Part shown: piece by piece, positions 8,236 through 50,092 of the stretch
Position numbering within the stretch: position 1 is the stretch's first letter
Layout of the letters: each line of letters starts with the position of its first letter
Assembly (NCBI GenBank): GCA_963805975.1
Contig: CAWDVR010000004.1
Coordinates: 1-64,000, forward strand
Direction: 5' to 3'
Length of the DNA stretch: 64,000 nucleotides
From: an uncultured Acidobacteriota bacterium
GTDB lineage: Bacteria > Acidobacteriota > Thermoanaerobaculia > Multivoradales > SZUA-115
Notes under the pieces: generated by a model
Seen by the model: only the letters and a program-made list of their open reading frames with translations
What the model was told of the DNA's origin: nothing
The model's database searches: none
Program-made: the position numbers and the translations under genes

Positions 8236-8295
8236 GCCCAACAGTCCGATGCAGCGGACCGGCCTCTGGCCGGCCGCTGATCGGCGGAGCGTTAG
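8236..8295 (+). other. attC site, interrupted in R' by IS110
   Basis: R'' GCCCAAC, L boxes CAGCGGAC/CCGCTGA around a hairpin, R' GTTAG followed by the IS. Confidence 0.85.
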
Positions 8296-8387
8296 ATCCT
8301 ATGCGTGGTCCGGGCGGTAGGTGGATCGGAAAGGAGCACGGGTCGTCCCGAGTAAGCTTCCTTTGAGACCAAGCAAAGGAGGAGCTT

Positions 8388-9530
8388 ATGAGCTCTCAGA
8401 CGACCCGTGGTAAGGAGTATAGCCAGAGGGCTGGGACGGTGTATCTGGCTTTCGAGCTGGGCAACACGGAGTGGAAGCTGGCGTTCACGGTGGGGCTGGG
8501 GCAGAAGCCTCGAGAGCGGACGATTCCGGCTGGTGAGGTTGGACGGCTGGCGGAGGAGATCGAGCGGGCGAAGCAGCGGTTTGGCCTGGCCAGTTCGGCC
8601 CGAGTGGTGAGCTGTTACGAGGCGGGGCGAGACGGGTTCTGGTTGCATCGGTTCCTGGGCGAGGTGGGGGTGGAGAGCCTGATCGTGGATTCCTCGAGCA
8701 TCGAAGTGCAGCGTCGAGGTCGGCGAGTGAAGACCGACCGACTCGATGCACGCAAGCTGGTGACGATGCTGATCCGCTACGACGGGGGTGAGCGCAAGGT
8801 GTGGAGCGTAGTGCGGGTGCCGGCATTGGAGGAAGAAGAGAATCGGCAGCTTCACAGGGAGCTGGGAGAGCTGAAACGCGAGCGGACGCGCCTGACGAAC
8901 CGGATCAAGGGCTTACTCGTGGGCCAGGGGATACGGATCGAGCTGAAGAGGGACTTCGTCGAGCGTCTTGGAGCGGCGCAGATGTGGGATAGCAGCCCTG
9001 TGCCGGCGGCGCTGCGCTGCCGGCTACTGCGGGAGTGGGAGCGCGTGGAGCTGATCAACCGACAGATTCGGGAGCTGGAAGACGATCGCGAGGAGCTGGT
9101 GCGGGAGTGGGACAGCCCGGAGGTCGAGAAGGTGCGCAGGCTGATGCAGCTACGCGGGATCGGGATCAACTTCTCCTGGCTTCTGGTCATGGAGTTCTTC
9201 GGGTGGCGACGGTTCCGCAACCGGCGTCAGGTGGGGTCTCTCGCGGGCCTGGTGCCGACGCCGTACCAGAGCGGCGCCAGCAGCAGGGAGGCAGGCATCA
9301 GCAAGGCAGGCAACGTGTGGGTGCGAGCGGTGGCCATTGAGATGGCCTGGGCCTGGTTGCGATTCCAGCCCCGCAGTGAGCTGGCAAGGTGGTACCGAGA
9401 GCGCTACGCTCAGGGCGGCAGTCGGATGCGACGGATCGGGATCGTCGCAGTGGCTCGCAAACTCTTGGTGGACCTCTGGCGGTACCTGGACTGGGGCGTG
9501 ATCCCAGCCGGCGCTGCCCTGAAGGCGTAG
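8388..9530 (+). CDS. IS110-family transposase/recombinase
   Basis: RuvC-like motifs LAFELG, CYEAG, KTDRLDA. C-terminal GIG, GLVPTPYQSG, ISKAGN, VAVARKL. Confidence 0.95.
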   Translation: MSSQTTRGKEYSQRAGTVYLAFELGNTEWKLAFTVGLGQKPRERTIPAGEVGRLAEEIERAKQRFGLASSARVVSCYEAGRDGFWLHRFLGEVGVESLIVDSSSIEVQRRGRRVKTDRLDARKLVTMLIRYDGGERKVWSVVRVPALEEEENRQLHRELGELKRERTRLTNRIKGLLVGQGIRIELKRDFVERLGAAQMWDSSPVPAALRCRLLREWERVELINRQIRELEDDREELVREWDSPEVEKVRRLMQLRGIGINFSWLLVMEFFGWRRFRNRRQVGSLAGLVPTPYQSGASSREAGISKAGNVWVRAVAIEMAWAWLRFQPRSELARWYRERYAQGGSRMRRIGIVAVARKLLVDLWRYLDWGVIPAGAALKA

Positions 9531-32484: not shown

Positions 32485-32762
32485 GTCGCTTCGTCCGCTT
32501 AGCCAAACCGACGGAGCCATGATTGACGCTGAAAAAATGATAGCGGGGTGATGGCTGTGCCGAGTATCTGCTGAGGGCTGAGGGATGCCGAGCGAGGCGG
32601 CAGCCAGCACGACGAAGATTGCCAGGTTAACCGCACTCACCTCGGCCGCCGCGTAATCCAAGAGGCGATTCTTAGGCCGACAGGAAGACATTCACATAAG
32701 TGACGGGATTCTTCGAGGCCATGGCCGTGCCCTTGGTACCTTGTCAGAGGAGAGAAACCGAT

Positions 32763-35700
32763 ATGTCTGAAAGGCACGAAAAGCAACGGTCCGCGAATGT
32801 GCGCTCACAGAGCGCGAAGGGTAACCGTATCGATGGCGGCGTCTTGCGATTGGCAAAGACTCTGGCCGCAGCACGCCGAATCAAGGTGGGCGAGGTGCTT
32901 GTGCCGCGAGCCGTGGCCGCTGCGGGCCGCGACCTGGAGCGCGCACGTGCGCTGGCGCGGCGAGCAATGCAGGGCGATCGAACCGCTGCAGAGCAATTCG
33001 CGGCCAAGATCGGCGGCAGCGGTCCGCTGCCCAAAGGCCACCAATTCCCGAGGCGGCCGCTCAGCCTCCGCGCCTCCGCATTGATGGCTGGCGCCCAGGC
33101 TGGTCCGGTTGCGGGAATACCGTGCCTCGGCCAAGTACACGCGGACCTCGAGCTGATTCATGCCGCGTTCAAGCTTGATGCTGAGCTAGGGTATCGTGAC
33201 GCGCGTCTGACCAGACGAGCCGGTGACTTCGTCCGCGAGCGCCGCGACCAGCTTGCCGCATTCGAACGGGACGACTGGCGGCCGAAAGCGGCGTCGACAG
33301 GCGGCCGTGGTCGAGTGGACGTGGGCGACCTTGGGCGAACCCCACAGGGCGGGCGCGGCGAATTGCCGCCGGGGACCGACCGTCCGGTCCCGGATGGCTT
33401 TGGTCCCAACTCCGGTCCGGGCAGGCTCCCACCAGGCGACAGCGTTCCACTGCTGCCACCCGACGCCAATTTACCCGGCGTGGGCGATCCACTCGAGCCG
33501 CCGCACGACGAGGATTTTTGCCTCGACATCAGCGATGTTTGCCTCCAGTTGTACCAAGATTTCGCCGCCGCCGCGTTGGCCGAGGACGATGCCCAATTGA
33601 TCGCTTCGGTAGGGCCGAACTGCCTCTGCGCCGCCGACCTCACCGACAATACGGAGTTCACCGCATGGCCCGACCCTGGACAATTCCCCGCGGATCGCGA
33701 TGACTACTCGTTGCTTTTCCGCGGCGCCGACATCACTGATCGCATCATCTCATGGCAGCCCGACGCCATTCGCTTCACCATTCCTGCCGGCTCCCGCACC
33801 GGCTACGTTGAACTCCGCCGCCCAATCAACACAGGCTCGCGGGCCATCGGCGGTACGCTGGCTAATCTGTGCGGGTTTCCTGACCTGGGAGGGGGCGGTC
33901 AGCTACCCTCCCCATCGCCGCGTGCAATTATCTCGATCATCCATCGGCCGGTCGTCGAATCGTTCACCGTGAACGGTGCCGGCGGGCCGGTTGCGGCCGA
34001 AGCGTGCACGGCGGTCTGGTTGAACTGGGCGGTGCGCCTCGAACACCAGCAGCTTGGTGCGCTGTTGCCGCCCTGCTGCACGATTCAGGTCGAAGTTCGC
34101 GATGCGGCTGGCGATGTTCTGCATCGTTCAAGCGACGAGATTGGCGGCTGGAACGACAATCCCGTCGACGACATCCGCTACCGGATCGTCGCGACAAGCA
34201 TGGCCGGGAACCACGCGTGTGGCACCGACCAGTCAGGCTGGATCGACGTCGGCCGTGAACACCGCTTATACGTCGAACCCGGGGAGCCGGCGAGCGCCTC
34301 CATAGTCGCCGCCAAGCCGGGCACACTGATGATCCGGCTCTCGTGTCCGGCGCCAGCGGCTGGCGCGCTGGTTATGCTAAGCTCGAGCAACCGTGACGTG
34401 CTGCATGTGCCCAACACGGTGACTGTGCTGCCCGGCGAGCGCTCAGCGATCGTTCAGTTCGCGACCTCTCGTGCTCGTTTCGGTCGCGTGGCAATCACCG
34501 CACGTTTGGCCAACCATCACGACGGTGTGCTGGATTACGAAGTGGTCGAGAATCTGACCGCGATTGTATTGTCGGGGGGCGGCGCAAAGGGCAGCTTCGA
34601 GGTCGGCGCGCTACTGTATCTGCGCGAGATCTGGAACGAGATTACGCCGCGGATCATCTGCGGCACCTCGGTAGGGGCCATCAATGCCCTCGGTCTGGCA
34701 GAAGCCACCCATTCCGGCGGTGTCGACAAGATTGAACGGATCTGGCTTGGCCTCCAATTCAATACGGACATGTATGTGCCGTCGCTGGAACTGCAGCGGG
34801 CCTCCGAGATCCTGGAAGTGCCGATCGCCGATATTCTCCTGCGCGGCAAGAGCTTCGGTGGCTTTGGCGATCTGTATCTCAATCTCATCGAGGTCACGCC
34901 AGAGGCGGCTGCCTGGGCGGCGACTGGCCTGGTAGTTGCCGGTCAGGTTGGCGCCCTTGTCGGCGGCCTCGCTCAGGTCTTCATCGACGAACCGGCCGAC
35001 AAGGTCGACGATGCGGTCCAGGAACTGAAACGAGCGAACTATCTTCTTGATCTGACGCCCACCCAAGACAAGATTACAGCGACCGATGGCTCTGGTATCG
35101 ATCTCGATGGCATCGCCAGCTCCGGCATGAAGCTGCGCCTGGCAACTGTAGCGCTGGAGGATGGCAAGCTCTATTACGTAACTGAAGCCTCCCGGTTGAT
35201 TCGCGGCAATGCACGCCGCTTGGAGTTCGACGAACCTATTACTGCCACGGGCGTGCATCCGCTAGTGGACGGCGCCATGGCGTCGTCCGCAATTCCGGTC
35301 TTCTTCCAGCCGCGCCGCATCAGCACAGTCACCACCTCAATGTTCCACGTGGACGGCGGCGTGCGCGAGGTACTGCCATCCCAGGTGGCGGTCGAGCTTG
35401 GTGCGCAGCTACTGTTCACCATCGCGGCCGGGCCGAGCGCTCCGTCAATGGCGAAACTTTCAGTGAACGCAGAAGTCGCCGGCTCGTCCAACCCTCTGCT
35501 AGGCACGCCAGGCCGATCGTTCGGCGATCCAGGCCGTCTCTTCGAAATAGGCCAACGTGGCATCGACCTCGCCGTCAATGAGGTGTTGTCCGAAGAGCGG
35601 CTTCCACGAGCCGGCTTCTGCGATGACCGCGAGCGCGTGCTGATCCAACCTTCGTTCGAGGTACACGACACCATCGAAATAGATCCCGGACTGATCCGTA

Positions 35701-36218
35701 TCAACATGGCCTACGGTTTCTTCCGGGCTTTCGACGCAGACCAGTTTCGTCGCGGCAACCTCAACGTGATCCAGTATTATCTGTGGCAGCTATGGACCGA
35801 CGACTTAATTAGAACCCGCGGCGAATGTCATGCGGTCGAGATGAACGGAGAAATGCGGTATGCGCGCGGGACCAGGCTCTTTCACCACAACACGCTGCAG
35901 GCCATCCGGGAGCGAAAGAACCACATCGCCGAGTTGATCGAAACACGCTTCGACACGTTCGGCGCCGCTGCATTTCCGCGCCAATTCGTGAGCGCTGTGA
36001 TGGGCAATCACAGCGTGCTGAGTTGGTGCGACACCTGGGAGATACATCAGGATCCGCATCGCAGCTTCCTCAACGGCATCGACCTGTGGCAGCCGCAGAT
36101 GCTGGAGTATCCGATGTGGGTCGAGGACGGCACCAGCTACCCGGCGATTCTCGAACCTACTGTGCTGGGCAAGTACCCGTTACCGGTGGGTATGCGCGAC
36201 GGTTTGCTGTTACGTTAG
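32763..36218 (+). CDS. Large multidomain patatin-like phospholipase
   Basis: LSGGGAKG, GTSVG, ASSAIP, VDGG. N-terminal Pro/Gly-rich linker and Cys-containing beta-rich (Ig/IPT-like) segments. Confidence 0.85.
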   Translation: MSERHEKQRSANVRSQSAKGNRIDGGVLRLAKTLAAARRIKVGEVLVPRAVAAAGRDLERARALARRAMQGDRTAAEQFAAKIGGSGPLPKGHQFPRRPLSLRASALMAGAQAGPVAGIPCLGQVHADLELIHAAFKLDAELGYRDARLTRRAGDFVRERRDQLAAFERDDWRPKAASTGGRGRVDVGDLGRTPQGGRGELPPGTDRPVPDGFGPNSGPGRLPPGDSVPLLPPDANLPGVGDPLEPPHDEDFCLDISDVCLQLYQDFAAAALAEDDAQLIASVGPNCLCAADLTDNTEFTAWPDPGQFPADRDDYSLLFRGADITDRIISWQPDAIRFTIPAGSRTGYVELRRPINTGSRAIGGTLANLCGFPDLGGGGQLPSPSPRAIISIIHRPVVESFTVNGAGGPVAAEACTAVWLNWAVRLEHQQLGALLPPCCTIQVEVRDAAGDVLHRSSDEIGGWNDNPVDDIRYRIVATSMAGNHACGTDQSGWIDVGREHRLYVEPGEPASASIVAAKPGTLMIRLSCPAPAAGALVMLSSSNRDVLHVPNTVTVLPGERSAIVQFATSRARFGRVAITARLANHHDGVLDYEVVENLTAIVLSGGGAKGSFEVGALLYLREIWNEITPRIICGTSVGAINALGLAEATHSGGVDKIERIWLGLQFNTDMYVPSLELQRASEILEVPIADILLRGKSFGGFGDLYLNLIEVTPEAAAWAATGLVVAGQVGALVGGLAQVFIDEPADKVDDAVQELKRANYLLDLTPTQDKITATDGSGIDLDGIASSGMKLRLATVALEDGKLYYVTEASRLIRGNARRLEFDEPITATGVHPLVDGAMASSAIPVFFQPRRISTVTTSMFHVDGGVREVLPSQVAVELGAQLLFTIAAGPSAPSMAKLSVNAEVAGSSNPLLGTPGRSFGDPGRLFEIGQRGIDLAVNEVLSEERLPRAGFCDDRERVLIQPSFEVHDTIEIDPGLIRINMAYGFFRAFDADQFRRGNLNVIQYYLWQLWTDDLIRTRGECHAVEMNGEMRYARGTRLFHHNTLQAIRERKNHIAELIETRFDTFGAAAFPRQFVSAVMGNHSVLSWCDTWEIHQDPHRSFLNGIDLWQPQMLEYPMWVEDGTSYPAILEPTVLGKYPLPVGMRDGLLLR

Positions 36219-37626: not shown

Positions 37627-37963
37627 TGACGCCGGCCAAGCGGCGTCGCCGAAACCCTCTGGACTCTGGTGGCTTAGAAACGATTCGGTGGCCTCGGGCT
37701 AGCCCCCTATCACGCGGACCTCTTTGGAGCGGGCAACGCCAGTTACTGTGTCGGGAGCACGCCGTCCGAAGAACTTGTGCCTACGCCCTAGAACCCACAG
37801 TCGAGGTAGGTCGCTTCCGGTGCTTCGATTGGGATGCGAATAAGACTGATCAGCTCGACGCTGGCAATGCAAGGACAGCGATAGGCACCCACATGGGTAC
37901 TTGCATTCTGCTTTGTTGATCTCGCTTGTCGTTAGTCATGTGCCTCAACCGTCCTTTCCTGAC

Positions 37964-38064
37964 GCCGAACGTCCTTGAGCTCAGGCGCAGCACTTGAGGT
38001 CTGACTCGAGCCGCAGGCCCGAGAGGAAGGCTGATGGTGCTGCGCCTGCGGCGAATTGTTCGGC
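37964..38064 (-). other. attC site
   Basis: Minus strand GCCGAAC..CAGGCGCAGCAC...GTGCTGCGCCTGA..GTTCGGC. Confidence 0.85.
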
Positions 38065-38088
38065 GGCAGCCTTCCTGACTCCTAGCCA

Positions 38089-38943
38089 TCAACGGTATGG
38101 CGAAGAGGATCTCCTCACTGAGACTCCCTTGAGACCTCGCCGCACCAGCTCCTTACGCACTTCCGACACGGGATGCGGATTCCGAGGGCCAAGCACTACG
38201 CCGCTGATCACCTGGCCAGGGTCCATCGCAATCGCTATATAGGGTGTCGGCACACCCCGCGACAAACGATAACAGATCGGCACTGCCGCTACGACATCGA
38301 TCGCGCCTATGTGTCCGCCCGGGTCTTCAAGGACGCCATCTCGCTCGACCAGGAGATGGACGAGGCGCACCTCCTGCTCCTCGAAGAAGCTCGGATGCTT
38401 CAACGAGAGAAGATCCACAGCGAGCCAAGGCAAGTTCTCGATGACAGCCTGAGCGCCGGCCGCGCCCCTAGCCCACCAGGAGGCGAACAGCTTCAGACTC
38501 GCCCGTACAAGTCGCCCCTGTCTCTTTCTGTCGTACTCCACTAGCTTCATGCGTACGGGGAGGTTGGCTCCCAAGCGAACGGCATTGAATTGGATGGCCA
38601 CGCCTTCGCCATCAGTAGCGTAGGCTCGCCATTGACTGAGCAGATCGCCGTTACGCGACAGACTAAACACTAGCGGCAGCACGTTCAGATGCGTCCCGAC
38701 CATGACGATTCGCACCGCCAGCGGGAAGTCCCCTGGATATCGGAACTTGTTCCTCTGGAGCTCGCGAAGCAGGATCTGCCGACCCCACAGCAACTCCACC
38801 GAATCGTTAAGGCACTTGATACTTGACAACCAGAGCGAGCAACTATCGAGAATAGCCCACAGCGTCGCTGTGGGGCAGTAGTGAAAGAGCTTCTCTCCAG
38901 GGAGTGGCTCGAAGCTCAGAGACGATAGGTCAAGGGCTGACAC
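38089..38943 (-). CDS. DUF2971 protein, cassette
   Basis: LFHY, LNDSVE, FSLS..GDLLSQWRAYA..GVAI, KH..F.EEQEVR, VVLGP. Confidence 0.9.
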   Translation of the reverse strand: MSALDLSSLSFEPLPGEKLFHYCPTATLWAILDSCSLWLSSIKCLNDSVELLWGRQILLRELQRNKFRYPGDFPLAVRIVMVGTHLNVLPLVFSLSRNGDLLSQWRAYATDGEGVAIQFNAVRLGANLPVRMKLVEYDRKRQGRLVRASLKLFASWWARGAAGAQAVIENLPWLAVDLLSLKHPSFFEEQEVRLVHLLVERDGVLEDPGGHIGAIDVVAAVPICYRLSRGVPTPYIAIAMDPGQVISGVVLGPRNPHPVSEVRKELVRRGLKGVSVRRSSSPYR

Positions 38944-39003
38944 ACTCTTCTAGCTCGCGCTTCTCAAACTTGCGAGAGCTCCTCGACCAGTCTTGCAAGT
39001 GCC

Positions 39004-39095
39004 GCCGAAAGTCAAGCATCAGCGCGCGCGCGACGGCGTGAAGGAAAAACGGAACTATTCCGCTGCGCGCGCTCCGCTGCATGCGCTAGTTCGGC
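39004..39095 (-). other. attC site with degenerate R' (TTTCGGC)
   Basis: Minus strand GCCGAAC..CAGCGGAGCGCGCG...CGCGCGCGCTGA..TTTCGGC. Confidence 0.8.
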
Positions 39096-39100
39096 GCTGT

Positions 39101-40222
39101 CTATCCGTAGGCAAGTTTCCAAACAGGAGTTCTCCGGCTGAGATAGGGGCTCAGTACTGAGAATGGAATAGTCGCTTGTGCGATCTTGACAACGAATGGT
39201 CCAACAAATGAGAACGACAAGCCTTCCTTAGTCACATTGAACAGCTTGAATCGGGAAGCATCGTCACTCTGCCAATCGTCGATAACAGGACTGAAGGTCG
39301 CCAAATCGAATTCGCCTTCGAACTCTTTCTTGATCTGCTCGTCGCAGAGCTCGATCAAGCGCGGGACAAAGTTGGTGTCGTACTCAAAGATGTCGTCTAC
39401 CAGGAGTTCAGCGACGGGCTTGAGAGTGAACGTAAGTGTACGACGCCAAAAGTTCGGATGGGCCGCCGGATAGTTGTAGTTTGAGAGATCAAACACGACG
39501 CTTACGAGCTCGGCAGACGCGTATGTAACCTGGGAGACACCTTCCAGAGTGGAGGTCGGCACGATTGGATGATCCTCGGTGCCCAATGTCTCACTGAACA
39601 GAACACGGCGAGCCCCATGAGCCTCGTCGAGCATGCGGCTCTTGATACGAGCGTTCACCTCATCGAGACCCAGGTCAACCGGGCCCTCAATCTGTGGGTA
39701 CTCGAGAGAGATGTCATATTGGCGTGTCGAGTCGGACTGATCAACAAGGCTCTCGTGACGAATGGTGATCCCTCCACCCGCAGCTTCGCGCTTCTCTTCA
39801 GCACGCCTAAGACGTCGCGCTCCTTCGTCAACTGCTGCACAGAGCCTGTTGAATCCATCCTCTGAGAAGAGGTCGACCCACTCGAAGTCGGACAGCGACT
39901 CAGGAACTTCGCAGTTTTCAAGTCGAGCTGGAATGATGTAGATGTCGTCATCGAACTTCTGCTGCCAGACGGAAAGTGCTTGGCGGATCTCTTTCTGAAG
40001 AAAGCCGCGTTTGCCAATTGATCGAGGCGAGAGAAGGGCTATGAAGAGTTCGGCTCGCTTTACGGCACGCCAAATGCTCTGCTCCCACTTCTCGCCTGGT
40101 AGAATGTCTCGCTTGTCCATCCAGGGCTGATACCCAGAATCCTGAAGCTGTCGGTAGAGAGCATCGACGGCCTCGTAGTCCTCGCTCGCGTAGCTCAGAA
40201 ACAGACGAATGGGCTGTGGCAA
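39101..40222 (-). CDS. TIR domain fused to a DUF4163/DUF3298 (RsiV/PdaC-like) domain, cassette
   Basis: LFLSYASED, PWMDKRDILPGEKW, FLQKEI; then YPQI..VN..I, LVSV..Y..AAHPN..TF, DDIF, FNVTKEGLSF. Confidence 0.75.
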   Translation of the reverse strand: MPQPIRLFLSYASEDYEAVDALYRQLQDSGYQPWMDKRDILPGEKWEQSIWRAVKRAELFIALLSPRSIGKRGFLQKEIRQALSVWQQKFDDDIYIIPARLENCEVPESLSDFEWVDLFSEDGFNRLCAAVDEGARRLRRAEEKREAAGGGITIRHESLVDQSDSTRQYDISLEYPQIEGPVDLGLDEVNARIKSRMLDEAHGARRVLFSETLGTEDHPIVPTSTLEGVSQVTYASAELVSVVFDLSNYNYPAAHPNFWRRTLTFTLKPVAELLVDDIFEYDTNFVPRLIELCDEQIKKEFEGEFDLATFSPVIDDWQSDDASRFKLFNVTKEGLSFSFVGPFVVKIAQATIPFSVLSPYLSRRTPVWKLAYG

Positions 40223-40268
40223 TCTTGTGGACCTCCGTCAGAGAGTGACCCGGACCTATGCGCGAGGC

Positions 40269-40333
40269 GCCGAACGGTCCGCCGATAAGCTGCGGGCGCC
40301 GAAGGCGACCGCCGCTTCATCGGCTTGTTAGAC
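40269..40333 (-). other. attC site
   Basis: Minus strand GTCTAAC (overlaps the stop codon)..AAGCGGCG...CGCAGCTTA..GTTCGGC. R'' is complementary to the attI core GTTAGAC. Confidence 0.9.
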
Positions 40334-41092
40334 AGCCCCCTTCCGCCCTCGATCGGATGTCTCAAAGTGCATCCTCTCCATGAAGATGTAGAAGAGATTC
40401 GCCTTCCTTCCTAACTCGCTCGACAGGTTGACGAGGTCCTCTTCGTAGACCGTTCGCTTGTAGGTCTCTTGGCAGGCCTTGAGCGTGGCGCGAACCCGAG
40501 TCGCGCCCCATGCGTCCTGGTTATTTTCACCCAGTCGCTGGATCTCTCTCGGCAGGAGCTTGTCGAACCATTTGAACCACCGAGTGAGAAGGGCATTTCC
40601 TTCGGTCGGAGTGATCGCCGCTTGATGGCCGACGATGCGCGGACCCTCTTCGGTCCATTCCACTGACAGGCCGCGACCTCGCTTTGGCTTCTCACCACGA
40701 ACCCCCATCGCATTGAGAAGGCCACGAACATTCAAGGAGAAGCCCCTGGGATCGCGGAAATCCGCGTACAGTTTGTCCCCCAATGGCGATGGCATGGGTG
40801 TCTCATCGACCCGCACCGGTAAGACCGACACCGACTGCCGTGAAAGTTCCTTTGACATAGCCAGGCTTAGTTCCTTCTGCACCCAGGGCGAGCGCGCTGC
40901 GTTTTTCGACATGACCACGATGACGAAGTCGACATCACGGATCGCTTCGGCGACACGATCGATAATCGAGTCGCCGATGCGAAGCTTCGCTTCGTCCAAC
41001 CACACTGAGATGCCGTGCGCGGCAAGCCTCTTCGCAAGCCGCCTGGCAAACGGCTTGTCGTGGGTGTTGTGGCTGAGGAATACAGAGGGCAT
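40328..41092 (-). CDS. TIR-domain protein with an unknown C-terminal domain, first cassette
   Basis: VFLSHN..DK.FARRL, VWLDE..IGDS, SPWVQKEL, LYADF. Confidence 0.9.
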   Translation of the reverse strand: MPSVFLSHNTHDKPFARRLAKRLAAHGISVWLDEAKLRIGDSIIDRVAEAIRDVDFVIVVMSKNAARSPWVQKELSLAMSKELSRQSVSVLPVRVDETPMPSPLGDKLYADFRDPRGFSLNVRGLLNAMGVRGEKPKRGRGLSVEWTEEGPRIVGHQAAITPTEGNALLTRWFKWFDKLLPREIQRLGENNQDAWGATRVRATLKACQETYKRTVYEEDLVNLSSELGRKANLFYIFMERMHFETSDRGRKGAV

Positions 41093-41112
41093 CGCCAGTG
41101 CCTCTCGGGGCT

Positions 41113-41190
41113 GTCTAACTAGTGCATCTACATTGGACGGGTTCAGCGTTCCAGGATCCCTAGACTCGCACTCGTTCGCTGAAGCTCCGA
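41113..41190 (-). other. Putative attI site, copy 2
   Basis: GTTAGAC core; GTGCATCTACATT.GACGGGT.CAG shared with 11606-11680. Confidence 0.75.
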
Positions 41191-41245
41191 GAGGGGGCAG
41201 AGCGTCGCCCACTCGAAGCGCTTTCGGATGCCAGTAGTTAGGAGC

Positions 41246-41273
41246 ATTCTATGCCTACTTCAATAGGAGTCAA
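41246..41273 (-). promoter_or_regulatory. Sigma70-type cassette promoter (Pc-like)
   Basis: TTGACT-N16-TAGAAT facing attI. Confidence 0.8.
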
Positions 41274-41561: not shown

Positions 41562-42495
41562 TCAGAGGTCCGAAGGGACCGGAAGGCGAAGTTTGGCGCT
41601 GGCGTGCCTCTGCACCTCGCCCCGCCGTCGGTCGTACCGGGCAGTCGTGACTGCATCGGCGTGTCCCGCCAGCCGCTGGACGGTGAACACGTCCACGCCA
41701 GCATCCAGGAGATCGGTGACGTAGGCCCTGCGGTAGGAGTGCGGCGTAATCCCTTCGACACCTGCCTGCTGCTGACGCCGTCTGAGGATGTACCACAGCG
41801 ACTCGCCCCGCATACGGCTAACGCGCACCTGGCCCGAGCTGCTCACCGGGCAGAAGAGCGCACCTGGCTCTGAGCCCCGCTCCCGGGTCCAGGTCTGGAG
41901 GAATCGGCAGACCTGCGGCGTCAGGTACACCGTCCGATCCCGCCGGCCTTTCCCGCTCCGTACGGTGAGCATGCAGGCCTCGGCGCCGAAGTCTGCCAGG
42001 TCGAGCCCGCACAGCTCTGCCCGCCGCAGGCCACCGCCATAGAGCACGGCGAGCATGGCGGCGTCGCGCCGGCCCGCTGGTGACAGGTCAGCCGCACAGA
42101 CCTTGAACAGCGCCCGGAGGCTCCTCCTGCTCAACGGCCCGCCCGCTCGGCAGCGTCTTCGCCTTGACGTTCTCCACGTCCACAGCCCGGGCATACGTCT
42201 CGTGGTCCAGCAGGCCGAGCCGCCAGGCGTTCTTGAGGACGCACCGTAGCGCCGAGAGCATCCGGTTCACGGTGGACGGGGCGAAGCGCTGAGTGAGCGC
42301 CGCCCTCACCGCCGCGGTGTCGCGGTAGCGGACCTTCCACCAAGGGTAGGTCCAGGGGTCGGTGCCGTCGCCGCCGAGGAGGCAGGCGACAGTCTCGAGC
42401 GAGTGCCGCACGGCCCAATAGCTTCCGGGCGCCAGAGAGTCGAGGTAGACGCGGGCAGGGTTGTCCTCCTGCTTGCGGCGTCGGGGCGTCGTCAT
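41562..42495 (-). CDS. XerC/D-like tyrosine recombinase (not IntI), one frameshift near 42120
   Basis: APSTVNRMLSALR, RDAAML..GLRRAEL, GKG, HSYRR, AGH, TTARYDRR. Lacks the IntI-specific insertion. Confidence 0.85.
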
Positions 42496-42755
42496 GGGGT
42501 GGTCTCCTGTCGGTCGGAATGTCTGTCCCACAGGCCCTTGGGGCTGGCCTGGGCCAGAGGCGGGTGCCCACACTCGACCGGTACGCGTCAGGCACCTTGG
42601 CGGGCCTCCCAGGGCCGGTGGGACAGGCTCTCCTCGGTCGGTCAGGATCTCCTGGGCCGGCCGAGTGGGGCTGGGTCATGGATGGGGATCGATGGACAGT
42701 AGAGGGAGGGCCGGGCGGCCAGGACACGGGCTCCAGACCGCCCTCCAAGGTCGGC

Positions 42756-47557: not shown

Positions 47558-48100
47558 GGCAAGGCTCCTTCTCGGGTGCTCCGAGAGACAAGCCGGGCCT
47601 GGGGCTGGAGATCGCTCGAGCCTCAGGCCACAGGCAGTGGTCATGAGGCTGGTAGCAGTACGGGGACCGGCGCCGGCTGGTCAACCGGGGCGAGAGCTTT
47701 AGCAGTGGGGAGCTAAGCTCGAGCCAGGCGCGGGCGGCGCGTCTGCATCCCTACCGTCTATCTGCCGCCGATCTGAGCCGCCTATTCGCTGCCACTTCCT
47801 CTCCGGCTAGCGGCGGGCAGAGGACTGGCCCGGGCCAATCCGTGGTTGAGTTCGGCTGCGGCGGACGCTCGGCTCCCGACCGTCTCTACCTGAGGTCTCC
47901 AGTTCGTGACCATTACCACGCGGTAGGCGGCCGGAAGTCAGGCAGATCCGCAGCCTTGCACTGTCCTCACTCGCAGTTCGTGACAACCCGCCGTTCACCC
48001 ATTTGGCGTGGTGGCGGCAGGGGCAGGTGCATAGAGAGTTCGGCTAAGATCGAGTCCAATGGTTGAGCCAGTTCAGGAGCGCGCCCAGCATGAGCTGCGA

Positions 48101-50092
48101 ATGGATCTCCAGGGGAGACTCCGCAACACTAAGGTCGCAGCTCAAGACGCCTTTCTCCCGCTCTTCGAGGCGGTGGTCAACGGCATCCATTCGACTGAGG
48201 ATCGCTTCGGTGTCAACGTAGAGACCATGGGGCGAGTCAGCATTCATGTGCACCGCGTCCAGCAACACGCAATTCCCGGAGCTACGGGCAGACCGCCTAT
48301 TGAGGAGCTTGAGGGCTTCACGATCGTTGACAATGGCGAGGGCTTTACTGACAAGAATCTCCGGTCTTTCGAGACGGCGGACAGCGATGCCAAGCTCGCT
48401 AGGGGTGGAAAAGGGATCGGCCGTCTTACCTGGTTGGTAGTTTTTCAGCGGGCTGAGATCCGAAGCACCTTCCAGCAACCCAACGGGAGCCGAGCTCAGC
48501 GGGCCTTCACGTTCAGCCCGACACCGACCGGAATCACCGATTTCGAGGAGCACGCCTCCGCACCTGATGCCGAACTGGAGACCCGGGTTCGCTTGGTCGG
48601 TACGCGGAGCACCTACGCACAGTACCTACGCAGAGGCACCGAAGTAATCGCGGAGCGCGTCTTCGAGCACTGTTTCAACTACTTCGTTCTGGGCCGTTGT
48701 CCCCGTGTGACCATCATCGATGAGGGGGCGGATGGTCAGACGACTGCCATTTTGAACGAGCGCCGCCGTGAACTCAACATCAGCGATAGGGAGCCCCTGA
48801 CTGTTGGAGACCACGCGCTGGACCTGCGGCATGTCCGGCAACGATATGCCACGGGGCGTCGGCACATGGGCCACCTTCTCGCCAATGACAGAGTGGCGTG
48901 TTCGTTCTCTCTCGCTGATGTATCTGACCTCAGCAATGATCCCATCCCCAGTGAAGCGGGGGAACCGCAAGTTCATCACGTCTACGTCGCTGGAGCCGCA
49001 CTCAACGAGGCTGCCGATAGCACGCGGACGCACTTCGTGCTTCCCGACGGCGAGCCGCTTCTCGAGGCAGCCGGCAGTCTCGACCTCAAGACTCTCCGCG
49101 AAGCCGTGGGGGCCAACGTCAACGAACAATTGGCGGTAGTGCTCGCAGCTGAAAGGGAGGAAACCCTCCGCAAGGTCCAAATTCACATTCGGACACAGCA
49201 GCCCGAGTATGCTCGGCTCCTCGAGCAGAAGCGAGAGCAGCTATCCAGAATCAAGTGGTCAGACAATCCGAGACAGCTCGACGAGGCGCTCTACAAATTG
49301 AAGCAGGGATGGGAGCTGGAGATCAGAAGCCAGCAGTCCGAAGTGGAGCGGAAGCTAGTCGCCGAACAGACTGAGATAGAGGACATCGCCGAGCAGCTTT
49401 ACCGTGTCGTCTCTGAGACGAATCTTGCTGGTCAGGATGACTTGGTACGGTACGTGGTCAAACGCCGAGCGGTGCTCCAGCTGCTAACGCAACTAACCTC
49501 AAGATTCCGGAGCGCTCTCGAAGAGGACATCCACAAGATCGTGTTTCCTCTGAAGACAACGAACGGCCAAGTCGCCTACGACGATCACAACCTGTGGCTA
49601 GTGGATGACACGCTCTCCTTCTACGAGTTCATCGCTTCGGATACCCCTCTCAACGCGCAGGAAGCGGCGGTGATCGACTCCAGGAGGAGGCCCGATATCC
49701 TGGCGTTCAAGGCAGGCGATCCTTTTCAGCACGTCTCTTTGGTCGAGTTCAAGAGGCCAGACCGCACCGACACGAAGAGTCCAGTCGAGCAACTTGTAGG
49801 CTACGCACGGCTCCTCCGGCGAGGCGGTGAGGTAGACGCCCAAGGCGTGACGATGCCCAAGGTAGGGATGAATGTCAGGATCGATGCCTACGCCATCGTT
49901 ACTCTGACTCCCCAGATGGAAGAGCTGCTATCCATCGGACCAGGCGAGATGAAGGAAGTCGAGGGAGAAGCCCGCTGGTATGGTGGCCTGTCTAGCCTCA
50001 ATATGACGATCGAAGTTCTTGACTTCACTGCCTTCGTCCGTCGTGCACAGCAACGCAACCAGGCGTTCTTTCGTGCGCTCGGCTTAATCTGA
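48101..50092 (+). CDS. GHKL (HATPase_c/MORC-like) ATPase fused to a PD-(D/E)xK nuclease
   Basis: EAVVNGI, DNGEGF, GGKGIGR, a coiled coil, then RPDIL..LVEFKRP. Confidence 0.85.
   Translation: MDLQGRLRNTKVAAQDAFLPLFEAVVNGIHSTEDRFGVNVETMGRVSIHVHRVQQHAIPGATGRPPIEELEGFTIVDNGEGFTDKNLRSFETADSDAKLARGGKGIGRLTWLVVFQRAEIRSTFQQPNGSRAQRAFTFSPTPTGITDFEEHASAPDAELETRVRLVGTRSTYAQYLRRGTEVIAERVFEHCFNYFVLGRCPRVTIIDEGADGQTTAILNERRRELNISDREPLTVGDHALDLRHVRQRYATGRRHMGHLLANDRVACSFSLADVSDLSNDPIPSEAGEPQVHHVYVAGAALNEAADSTRTHFVLPDGEPLLEAAGSLDLKTLREAVGANVNEQLAVVLAAEREETLRKVQIHIRTQQPEYARLLEQKREQLSRIKWSDNPRQLDEALYKLKQGWELEIRSQQSEVERKLVAEQTEIEDIAEQLYRVVSETNLAGQDDLVRYVVKRRAVLQLLTQLTSRFRSALEEDIHKIVFPLKTTNGQVAYDDHNLWLVDDTLSFYEFIASDTPLNAQEAAVIDSRRRPDILAFKAGDPFQHVSLVEFKRPDRTDTKSPVEQLVGYARLLRRGGEVDAQGVTMPKVGMNVRIDAYAIVTLTPQMEELLSIGPGEMKEVEGEARWYGGLSSLNMTIEVLDFTAFVRRAQQRNQAFFRALGLI

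Follow-up and report, generated by a model that had tools for sequence, protein, structure and literature searches.

A TIR–DUF4163/DUF3298 fusion in an integron-type cassette of an uncultured Acidobacteriota bacterium: a likely mobile one-gene immune sensor

The fusion gene and its cassette array

We analysed a window of 64,000 nt, the first part of contig CAWDVR010000004.1 from an uncultured Acidobacteriota bacterium (assembly GCA_963805975.1). The gene under study lies on the minus strand at 39101..40222 and encodes, in an intact frame, a protein of 373 amino acids in which a TIR domain is fused to a DUF4163/DUF3298 domain. It starts with a TTG codon preceded by GGAGG 9 nt upstream, and homologues share this start position. 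Translation of 39101-40222 bore out the reading frame given in a preliminary description of the locus and all motifs quoted there: FLQKEI (residues 74-79), YPQI (175-178), AAHPN (253-257), and FNVTKEGLSF (328-337). No signal peptide or membrane segment was seen in the protein on inspection by eye, which supports the cytoplasmic layout proposed earlier.

The fusion gene is the middle one of three tandem genes (TIR, fusion, DUF2971; 37964-41119), each beginning at a core site complementary to its own downstream inverse core. Upstream of it lies attC1 (40269..40333, minus strand, 65 bp), whose core GTTCGGC (40275-40269) is the start of the fusion cassette. The cassette's own site, attC2 (39004..39095, minus strand, 92 bp), has an inverse core, GCCGAAC, that pairs with this start and a core, TTTCGGC, that is without the conserved G. 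The third site, attC3 (101 bp), occupies 37964..38064 on the same strand. All three sites fold into hairpins, with fold z values of -4.0 for attC1 (-5.3 in its circular form) and -2.6 for both attC2 and attC3. With attC sites on both sides, the fusion gene forms an integron-type cassette, a status overlooked in the preliminary description; the sites were assigned from core pairing and hairpin folding. Leaving aside one duplicate and one truncated locus, 4 of 18 fusion loci have the same cassette signature, compared with 1 of 21 non-fused ones; none of 306 mismatched pairs showed it. At 55% GC, the fusion cassette is poorer in GC than the part of the contig that lies outside the window (70%).

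Cassette 1 (40328..41089, minus strand) holds a second TIR gene, the stop codon of which falls within the inverse core; its TIR is unrelated to that of the fusion (22% identity). The second TIR protein has a canonical WxxxE motif and an uncharacterised helical C-terminal part, and its best PADLOC match was PDC-S66 (E 7.5e-20). Cassette 3 (38089..38943, minus strand) holds a DUF2971 gene with a weak match to PADLOC PDC-S31, and a small ORF near 37940 may form a fourth cassette. At the array head (41113..41273, minus strand), pattern searches located a first core site, GTTAGAC (41119-41113), and a sigma-70-like promoter match (41273-41246) that is weak because it is at chance level (one found, 0.9 expected). 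This segment is possibly an attI/Pc remnant. The integron integrase model TIGR02249 stayed below its cut-off throughout the window's genome (96% complete), and the array is therefore CALIN-like. Upstream of the array, a tyrosine recombinase (41562-42573, minus strand) lies in two overlapping frames, apparently through a frameshift; it is not IntI by TIGR02249.

In a soil sequencing run, attC1 was found on many contigs with different flanks. That run also covers a relative of the DUF2971 cassette, while the fusion gene itself is uncovered there. It was the one DNA run listed, with a small share, and no RNA run was listed. One-gene defences are known to be stored in integron cassettes, and at least 18% of the tested V. 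cholerae cassettes were anti-phage (10.1101/2024.07.02.601686).

The window as a whole is a low-GC mobile region (63% versus 70%) with several tyrosine integrases. It includes a phage-like module at 18-26 kb, a KAP NTPase, Mrr, EVE-HNH, and RadC, as well as an ATPase (48059-50092) and a Mokosh-like helicase (51475-54660). At 32700-36218 on the plus strand, a 1172-aa protein combines a long unannotated N-terminal part with a patatin-like phospholipase domain behind it, which the PADLOC model of a CBASS effector matched at E 9e-11. An attC-like site (8236-8297, plus strand) lies just ahead of an IS110-like transposase gene (8388-9530, labelled by eye).

The TIR and RsiV-fold domains

The TIR domain occupies approximately residues 1-140 (39803..40222, minus strand), as delimited by Pfam TIR_2, PADLOC Aga_TIR, and alignments. 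TIR_2 spans residues 8-128 (E 3e-27), and the domain features BB-loop residues G43 and W46, a KRGxxQxE motif, and a predicted catalytic Glu78. Lys71, Arg72, Gly73, Gln76, and Glu78 were present in all 35 fusions of alignment A4, which comprises these 35 and 19 non-fused domains; an N-terminal TIR with a conserved Glu, as described earlier, was thus confirmed. The residue four positions before Glu78 was Phe or Tyr in 34 of the 35 fusions; many NADase TIRs have a Trp four residues ahead of the catalytic Glu, a difference that weighs against the reading proposed below. The nearest defence TIR was SPARTA TIR-APAZ, both in PADLOC (Aga_TIR, E 8e-16) and in profile matches to the PDB, and the Glu motif and BB-loop Trp of the fusion TIR align with those of TIR-APAZ. 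PADLOC ThsB models matched weakly. In SPARTA, oligomerisation lets a BB loop that ends in Trp46 complete the composite active site, and the E77A substitution abolishes activity (10.1101/2023.09.23.559129). The fusion TIR is a predicted NAD-destroying enzyme.

Pfam alone gave matches below cut-off for the C-terminal part, namely DUF3298 (E 0.011) and PdaC/DUF4163 (E 0.024). A family profile built from 26 full-length relatives matched 3CYG, 3S5T, RsiV 5JEN (E 1e-11), MPT64 2HHI, and 4E72, with 3S5T and 3CYG outscoring RsiV. For an AlphaFold model of the fusion protein (pLDDT 83), Foldseek ranks 1-6 were taken by 3S5T, 5JEN, 3CYG, and 4E72. VIA-align gave Z values of 14.7-16.7 across the matched PDB entries; the alignment to 5JEN (Z 14.7) covered residues 150-371, with 193 residues aligned at an rmsd of 3.8. 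By profile and model, the C-terminal part (residues 150-373; 39104..39775, minus strand; Foldseek, VIA-align, and profile alignment) has the predicted DUF4163/DUF3298 two-domain RsiV fold. The RsiV-like domain of the preliminary description, put forward there with the proviso that the fold might prove unrelated to RsiV/DUF3298, is upheld: all three comparisons match RsiV 5JEN, and the fold is related.

In RsiV, loops 163-171 and 255-261 grip the active site of lysozyme (PMC5014341). In the profile alignment, Ala254-His255-Pro256 of the fusion protein (loop 1) aligns with RsiV A167-S168-S169 and the family's loop-2 Tyr aligns with RsiV Tyr255, which places the residues conserved among the fusions on the lysozyme-contact loops and would seat them on the RsiV saddle. 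The positions of RsiV's contact residues (Q166-S169, Y255, P259-Y261) align, whereas the residues themselves differ in the fusion protein. The loops of the fusions carry the family-wide motifs GAAH and YQVxxYAxG, versus QASS and APGYMG in RsiV; judged by alignment, the saddle residues are those of the main DUF3298 family, unlike RsiV's own. His255 was present in 54 of 54 rows of alignment A4.

In the window protein, loop 2 is four residues short, and the counterpart of RsiV Y255 is among those missing. This deletion defines a clade of 7 of the 35 fusions, the window protein included, with a tree support of 100/100; 28 of the 35 keep the loop-2 Tyr. The loop-1 Gly is also lost in the clade. Both losses would fit a functional family in which the clade of the window copy is decaying or retargeted cargo, as would the attC2 core TTTCGGC and the lack of an integron integrase above cut-off in the genome. 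We give this explanation a small chance: the deletion is common to a well-supported clade, all seven members have the Glu and His intact, and the reading frame is intact. Because it is common to seven proteins that are 41-63% identical and retain both residues, the deletion was probably kept by selection.

Distribution, genomic context, and effector swap

A TIR and an RsiV-fold domain were both present in 25 of the 120 homologues listed, and these 25 were chosen for alignment A2. The ESM Atlas contained TIR+DUF3298 clusters of 62-116 members (scores 0.96-0.98). Fusions were detected in at least 2 of 401 genomes of the window's phylum and at least 1 of 401 genomes of a second phylum (that of G403), and none was found in 301 genomes of a third (that of G401) in a search at E 1e-60. 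These genome counts are lower bounds because the search missed one member found later. At least two plasmid records of cultured Rhizobiaceae (Agrobacterium and Rhizobium) carry a fusion; the copy on a Rhizobium leguminosarum plasmid is WP_207159497.1. The family is widespread but sporadic. No longer fusions (420-2000 aa) were found among 7,990 scored candidates, which is weak evidence, and no TIR fusions in the viral contigs or phage records searched; DUF3298 occurred in phage records only as a stand-alone protein (six records). The window's genome yielded no further DUF3298 match. As to a single origin of the fusion, the fusion and non-fused labels on the tree need two to three changes. One copy (L074:349-1809, plus strand) is split into two ORFs by a stop or frameshift.

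Defence neighbours were identified at six of the nine fusion loci having at least 4.5 kb of DNA, a small sample that was read by hand with no statistical test. These neighbours were Mrr, HNH, and TIR at the window locus; type I restriction-modification in G353 (read by eye); SIR2-HerA, directly ahead of the fusion gene, and restriction genes at L079; AIPR at L029; HEPN, GIY-YIG, and ATPase+S8 on the Agrobacterium plasmid; and a methylase and DarT on the Rhizobium plasmid. Loci L040, L073, and L117 had no clear defence neighbour. Among stand-alone DUF3298 plasmid genes, one of six had a defence neighbour and the other five were in ordinary contexts. A fixed two-gene system of the fusion with the neighbouring TIR or DUF2971 gene was considered and rejected, since these are separate cassettes and the association does not recur.

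A profile built from 13 C-terminal domains of TIR fusions gave 18,132 matches at E up to 0.001 among 1.84 billion representatives. The best 150 comprised 37 TIR fusions (Glu in 36 and His in all 37), 72 proteins whose N-terminus a crude test classed as hydrophobic, 14 with the domain alone, and 27 others; these shares are not family-wide because the profile was built from TIR fusions. Eleven of the 27 others have an HNH nuclease at the N-terminus (P0156, P0160, P0164, P0173, P0175, P0186, P0191, P0215, P0219, P0258, and P0267): seven above the Pfam HNH cut-off, two weak, and two by motif alignment only. Two HNH subtypes are represented among them, and both saddle motifs are retained. One HNH–RsiV-fold locus is L182:8340-9317 (plus strand), and one HNH fusion seen in genome context was low-GC cargo adjoining an integrase and an insertion sequence. 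The HNH–RsiV-fold proteins are a candidate sister system to the TIR fusions. Because a domain without an export signal moves between NADase-type and nuclease-type killers, it is most simply a sensor, and the effector swap would mark it as such.

Alternatively, the TIR could resemble Thoeris-like or TIR-coupled systems in making a signal (an ADP-ribose derivative) or in serving a distinct effector as a homotypic adaptor, in which case it would not itself kill by depleting NAD+. A second TIR gene adjoins the fusion in the window, one fusion copy directly follows SIR2-HerA, and the TIR may be an adaptor because its subfamily is found in numerous multidomain proteins, joined to many different signalling domains. 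We consider such a role markedly improbable: no partner gene recurs across the 18 fusion loci, the neighbouring TIR has a cassette of its own, SPARTA TIR-APAZ models match best among the defence models with ThsB weak, and an effector role is in keeping with an HNH nuclease taking the place of the TIR.

Comparison with known systems, mechanism, and ligand

RsiV, the anti-sigma-V factor and lysozyme receptor of B. subtilis, shares the DUF4163+DUF3298 fold and the conserved saddle-loop positions with the fusion (5JEN, PMC5014341). Unlike RsiV, the fusion has an N-terminal TIR and is without the sigma-binding part, the membrane anchor, and a sigma gene: where RsiV (ECF30) has an adjacent sigV, the neighbours here are TIR and DUF2971 cassettes. 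The output of RsiV is proteolysis, whereas that of the fusions would be a TIR or HNH domain. SPARTA TIR-APAZ, the closest defence TIR, is activated by oligomerisation (8QLO; 10.1101/2023.09.23.559129), but the fusion has no APAZ domain, no Argonaute was among the neighbours read, and its sensor is a protein-binding fold instead of a nucleic-acid guide. Thoeris differs in that it has a conserved ThsA-type effector gene, whereas no partner recurs at the 18 fusion loci. SpbK and other single-protein TIR abortive-infection systems likewise consist of one gene with a TIR NADase triggered by a phage protein (PMC12847820), with an unrelated sensor part. DUF3298 proteins with no ligand assigned (MPT64/Rv1980c, BF2082, PA4972, and 3CYG) share the GxH loop motif with the fusions but are exported or stand-alone and found in housekeeping contexts. 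The anti-phage integron cassettes of 10.1101/2024.07.02.601686 are likewise single-gene, streamlined, and placed between attC sites, whereas the array here is short and has no detected integron integrase; the main text of that preprint mentions neither TIR nor DUF2971. The fusion would work like one-protein TIR abortive-infection systems, but the features that define RsiV, SPARTA, and Thoeris set it apart from each of them.

The preliminary description knew of no system with this architecture, and the literature, outside subscription papers and supplements, yielded no description of TIR-DUF3298 or RsiV-TIR phage defence. No described defence system using the RsiV fold was found there, and no TIR fusion sensing a lysis enzyme was found in the literature on endolysin sensing and TIR triggers. 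By title, none of the DUF3298 papers among the matches listed concerned phage defence. A preprint on TIR systems (10.64898/2025.12.03.692087) does not name the family in its main text, although its supplements could list it.

Since the domain is joined to DNA-cutting enzymes in relatives, we read this mobile gene as likely an undescribed one-gene immune sensor that would kill the cell upon binding a phage protein. In an uninfected cell, the monomer would be inactive. At a late stage of infection, a phage cell-wall hydrolase would fold in the cytoplasm and be bound by the RsiV-fold saddle; the most likely candidate is an endolysin with a lysozyme fold that accumulates there. Binding would bring TIR domains together so that composite active sites form, NAD+ would be destroyed, and the cell would die before progeny mature, aborting the infection. 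We infer it to be quite probable that the protein defends against phage as an NADase that oligomerisation activates. The trigger is possibly the phage's own wall-cutting enzyme; given the rest of the reading, the chance of a phage cell-wall hydrolase as ligand is about even, and lower for the short-loop subclade than for the whole family. The full chain, with a phage endolysin as the ligand, falls a little short of even. The immune-protein proposal of the preliminary description thus fared differently in its two parts. A defence role gained from the HNH swap and the cassette context, whereas lysozyme sensing is the least secure part: the fusion loops are unlike RsiV's, the window's subclade is without the Tyr255 match, MPT64, which lacks the loop-2 Tyr, has both domains of the fold yet does not bind lysozyme, and RsiV, which binds C-type lysozyme, does not bind mutanolysin (PMC5014341).

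Exported relatives speak in favour of a wall-hydrolase ligand. A LysM-GH19 muramidase gene is directly followed by an exported GAAH-type DUF3298 gene in two genomes that belong to a single genus (L120:12647-15202, plus strand, whole; L121:7156-8459, minus strand, cut by the contig end). The paired enzyme resembles phage endolysins, and the two genes are likely a toxin-immunity pair. The L120 pair adjoins a type III CRISPR cluster (read by eye). The pairing was seen at 2 of 12 GH19 loci in 401 genomes, on which ground a general DUF3298-GH19 association was rejected. No muramidase neighbour was found at any of the six plasmid DUF3298 genes, and one GH19 query gave no match in the window's genome. 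Other exported DUF3298 members are fused to LprI (L122:9662-10717, plus strand) or to a chagasin I42 inhibitor domain (P0230). The exported one-family proteins of L005-L017 have an unannotated beta-rich domain ahead of the DUF3298 domain.

The saddle of the same sensor-NADase might bind something other than a hydrolase, such as another phage protein, an infection-altered host protein, or a cell-wall fragment, and the short-loop clade may have changed specificity. All defence evidence (neighbours, cassettes, and swap) fits this version, the GAAH motif is common to MPT64-like and housekeeping relatives without an assigned ligand, and loop 2 is remodelled in the window's clade. We nevertheless find it rather unlikely, as lysozyme is the sole ligand demonstrated for the fold (PMC5014341), the conserved residues are those of the lysozyme-binding site, and loop 2 is likewise altered or shortened in the GH19-adjacent relatives.

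A very slim chance goes to a guard against other invaders that bring hydrolases, such as conjugative lytic transglycosylases or the muramidase toxins of rival bacteria. The resemblance of the exported relatives to immunity proteins of GH19 toxins and the two fusion copies on plasmids would suit such a guard. Those enzymes, however, act in the periplasm, and the fusions are without an export signal; phage endolysins do fold in the cytoplasm.

Returning to the endolysin reading, we hold tentatively, and at clearly less than even, that a periplasmic lysozyme-inhibitor fold became a cytoplasmic endolysin-recognition module with interchangeable killers (a TIR NADase and two kinds of HNH) that spread as integron cassettes. 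Which phage molecules are detected by bacterial immunity is an open question; if this reading is true, the lysis enzyme would join the recognised triggers of immunity as a new one, and a ligand would be assigned to the large DUF3298 family (18,132 representatives), with a bearing on endolysin engineering and phage therapy. Should the ligand differ, the fusions would still form a family of one-gene defence candidates not described before, with plasmid copies in cultured Rhizobiaceae.
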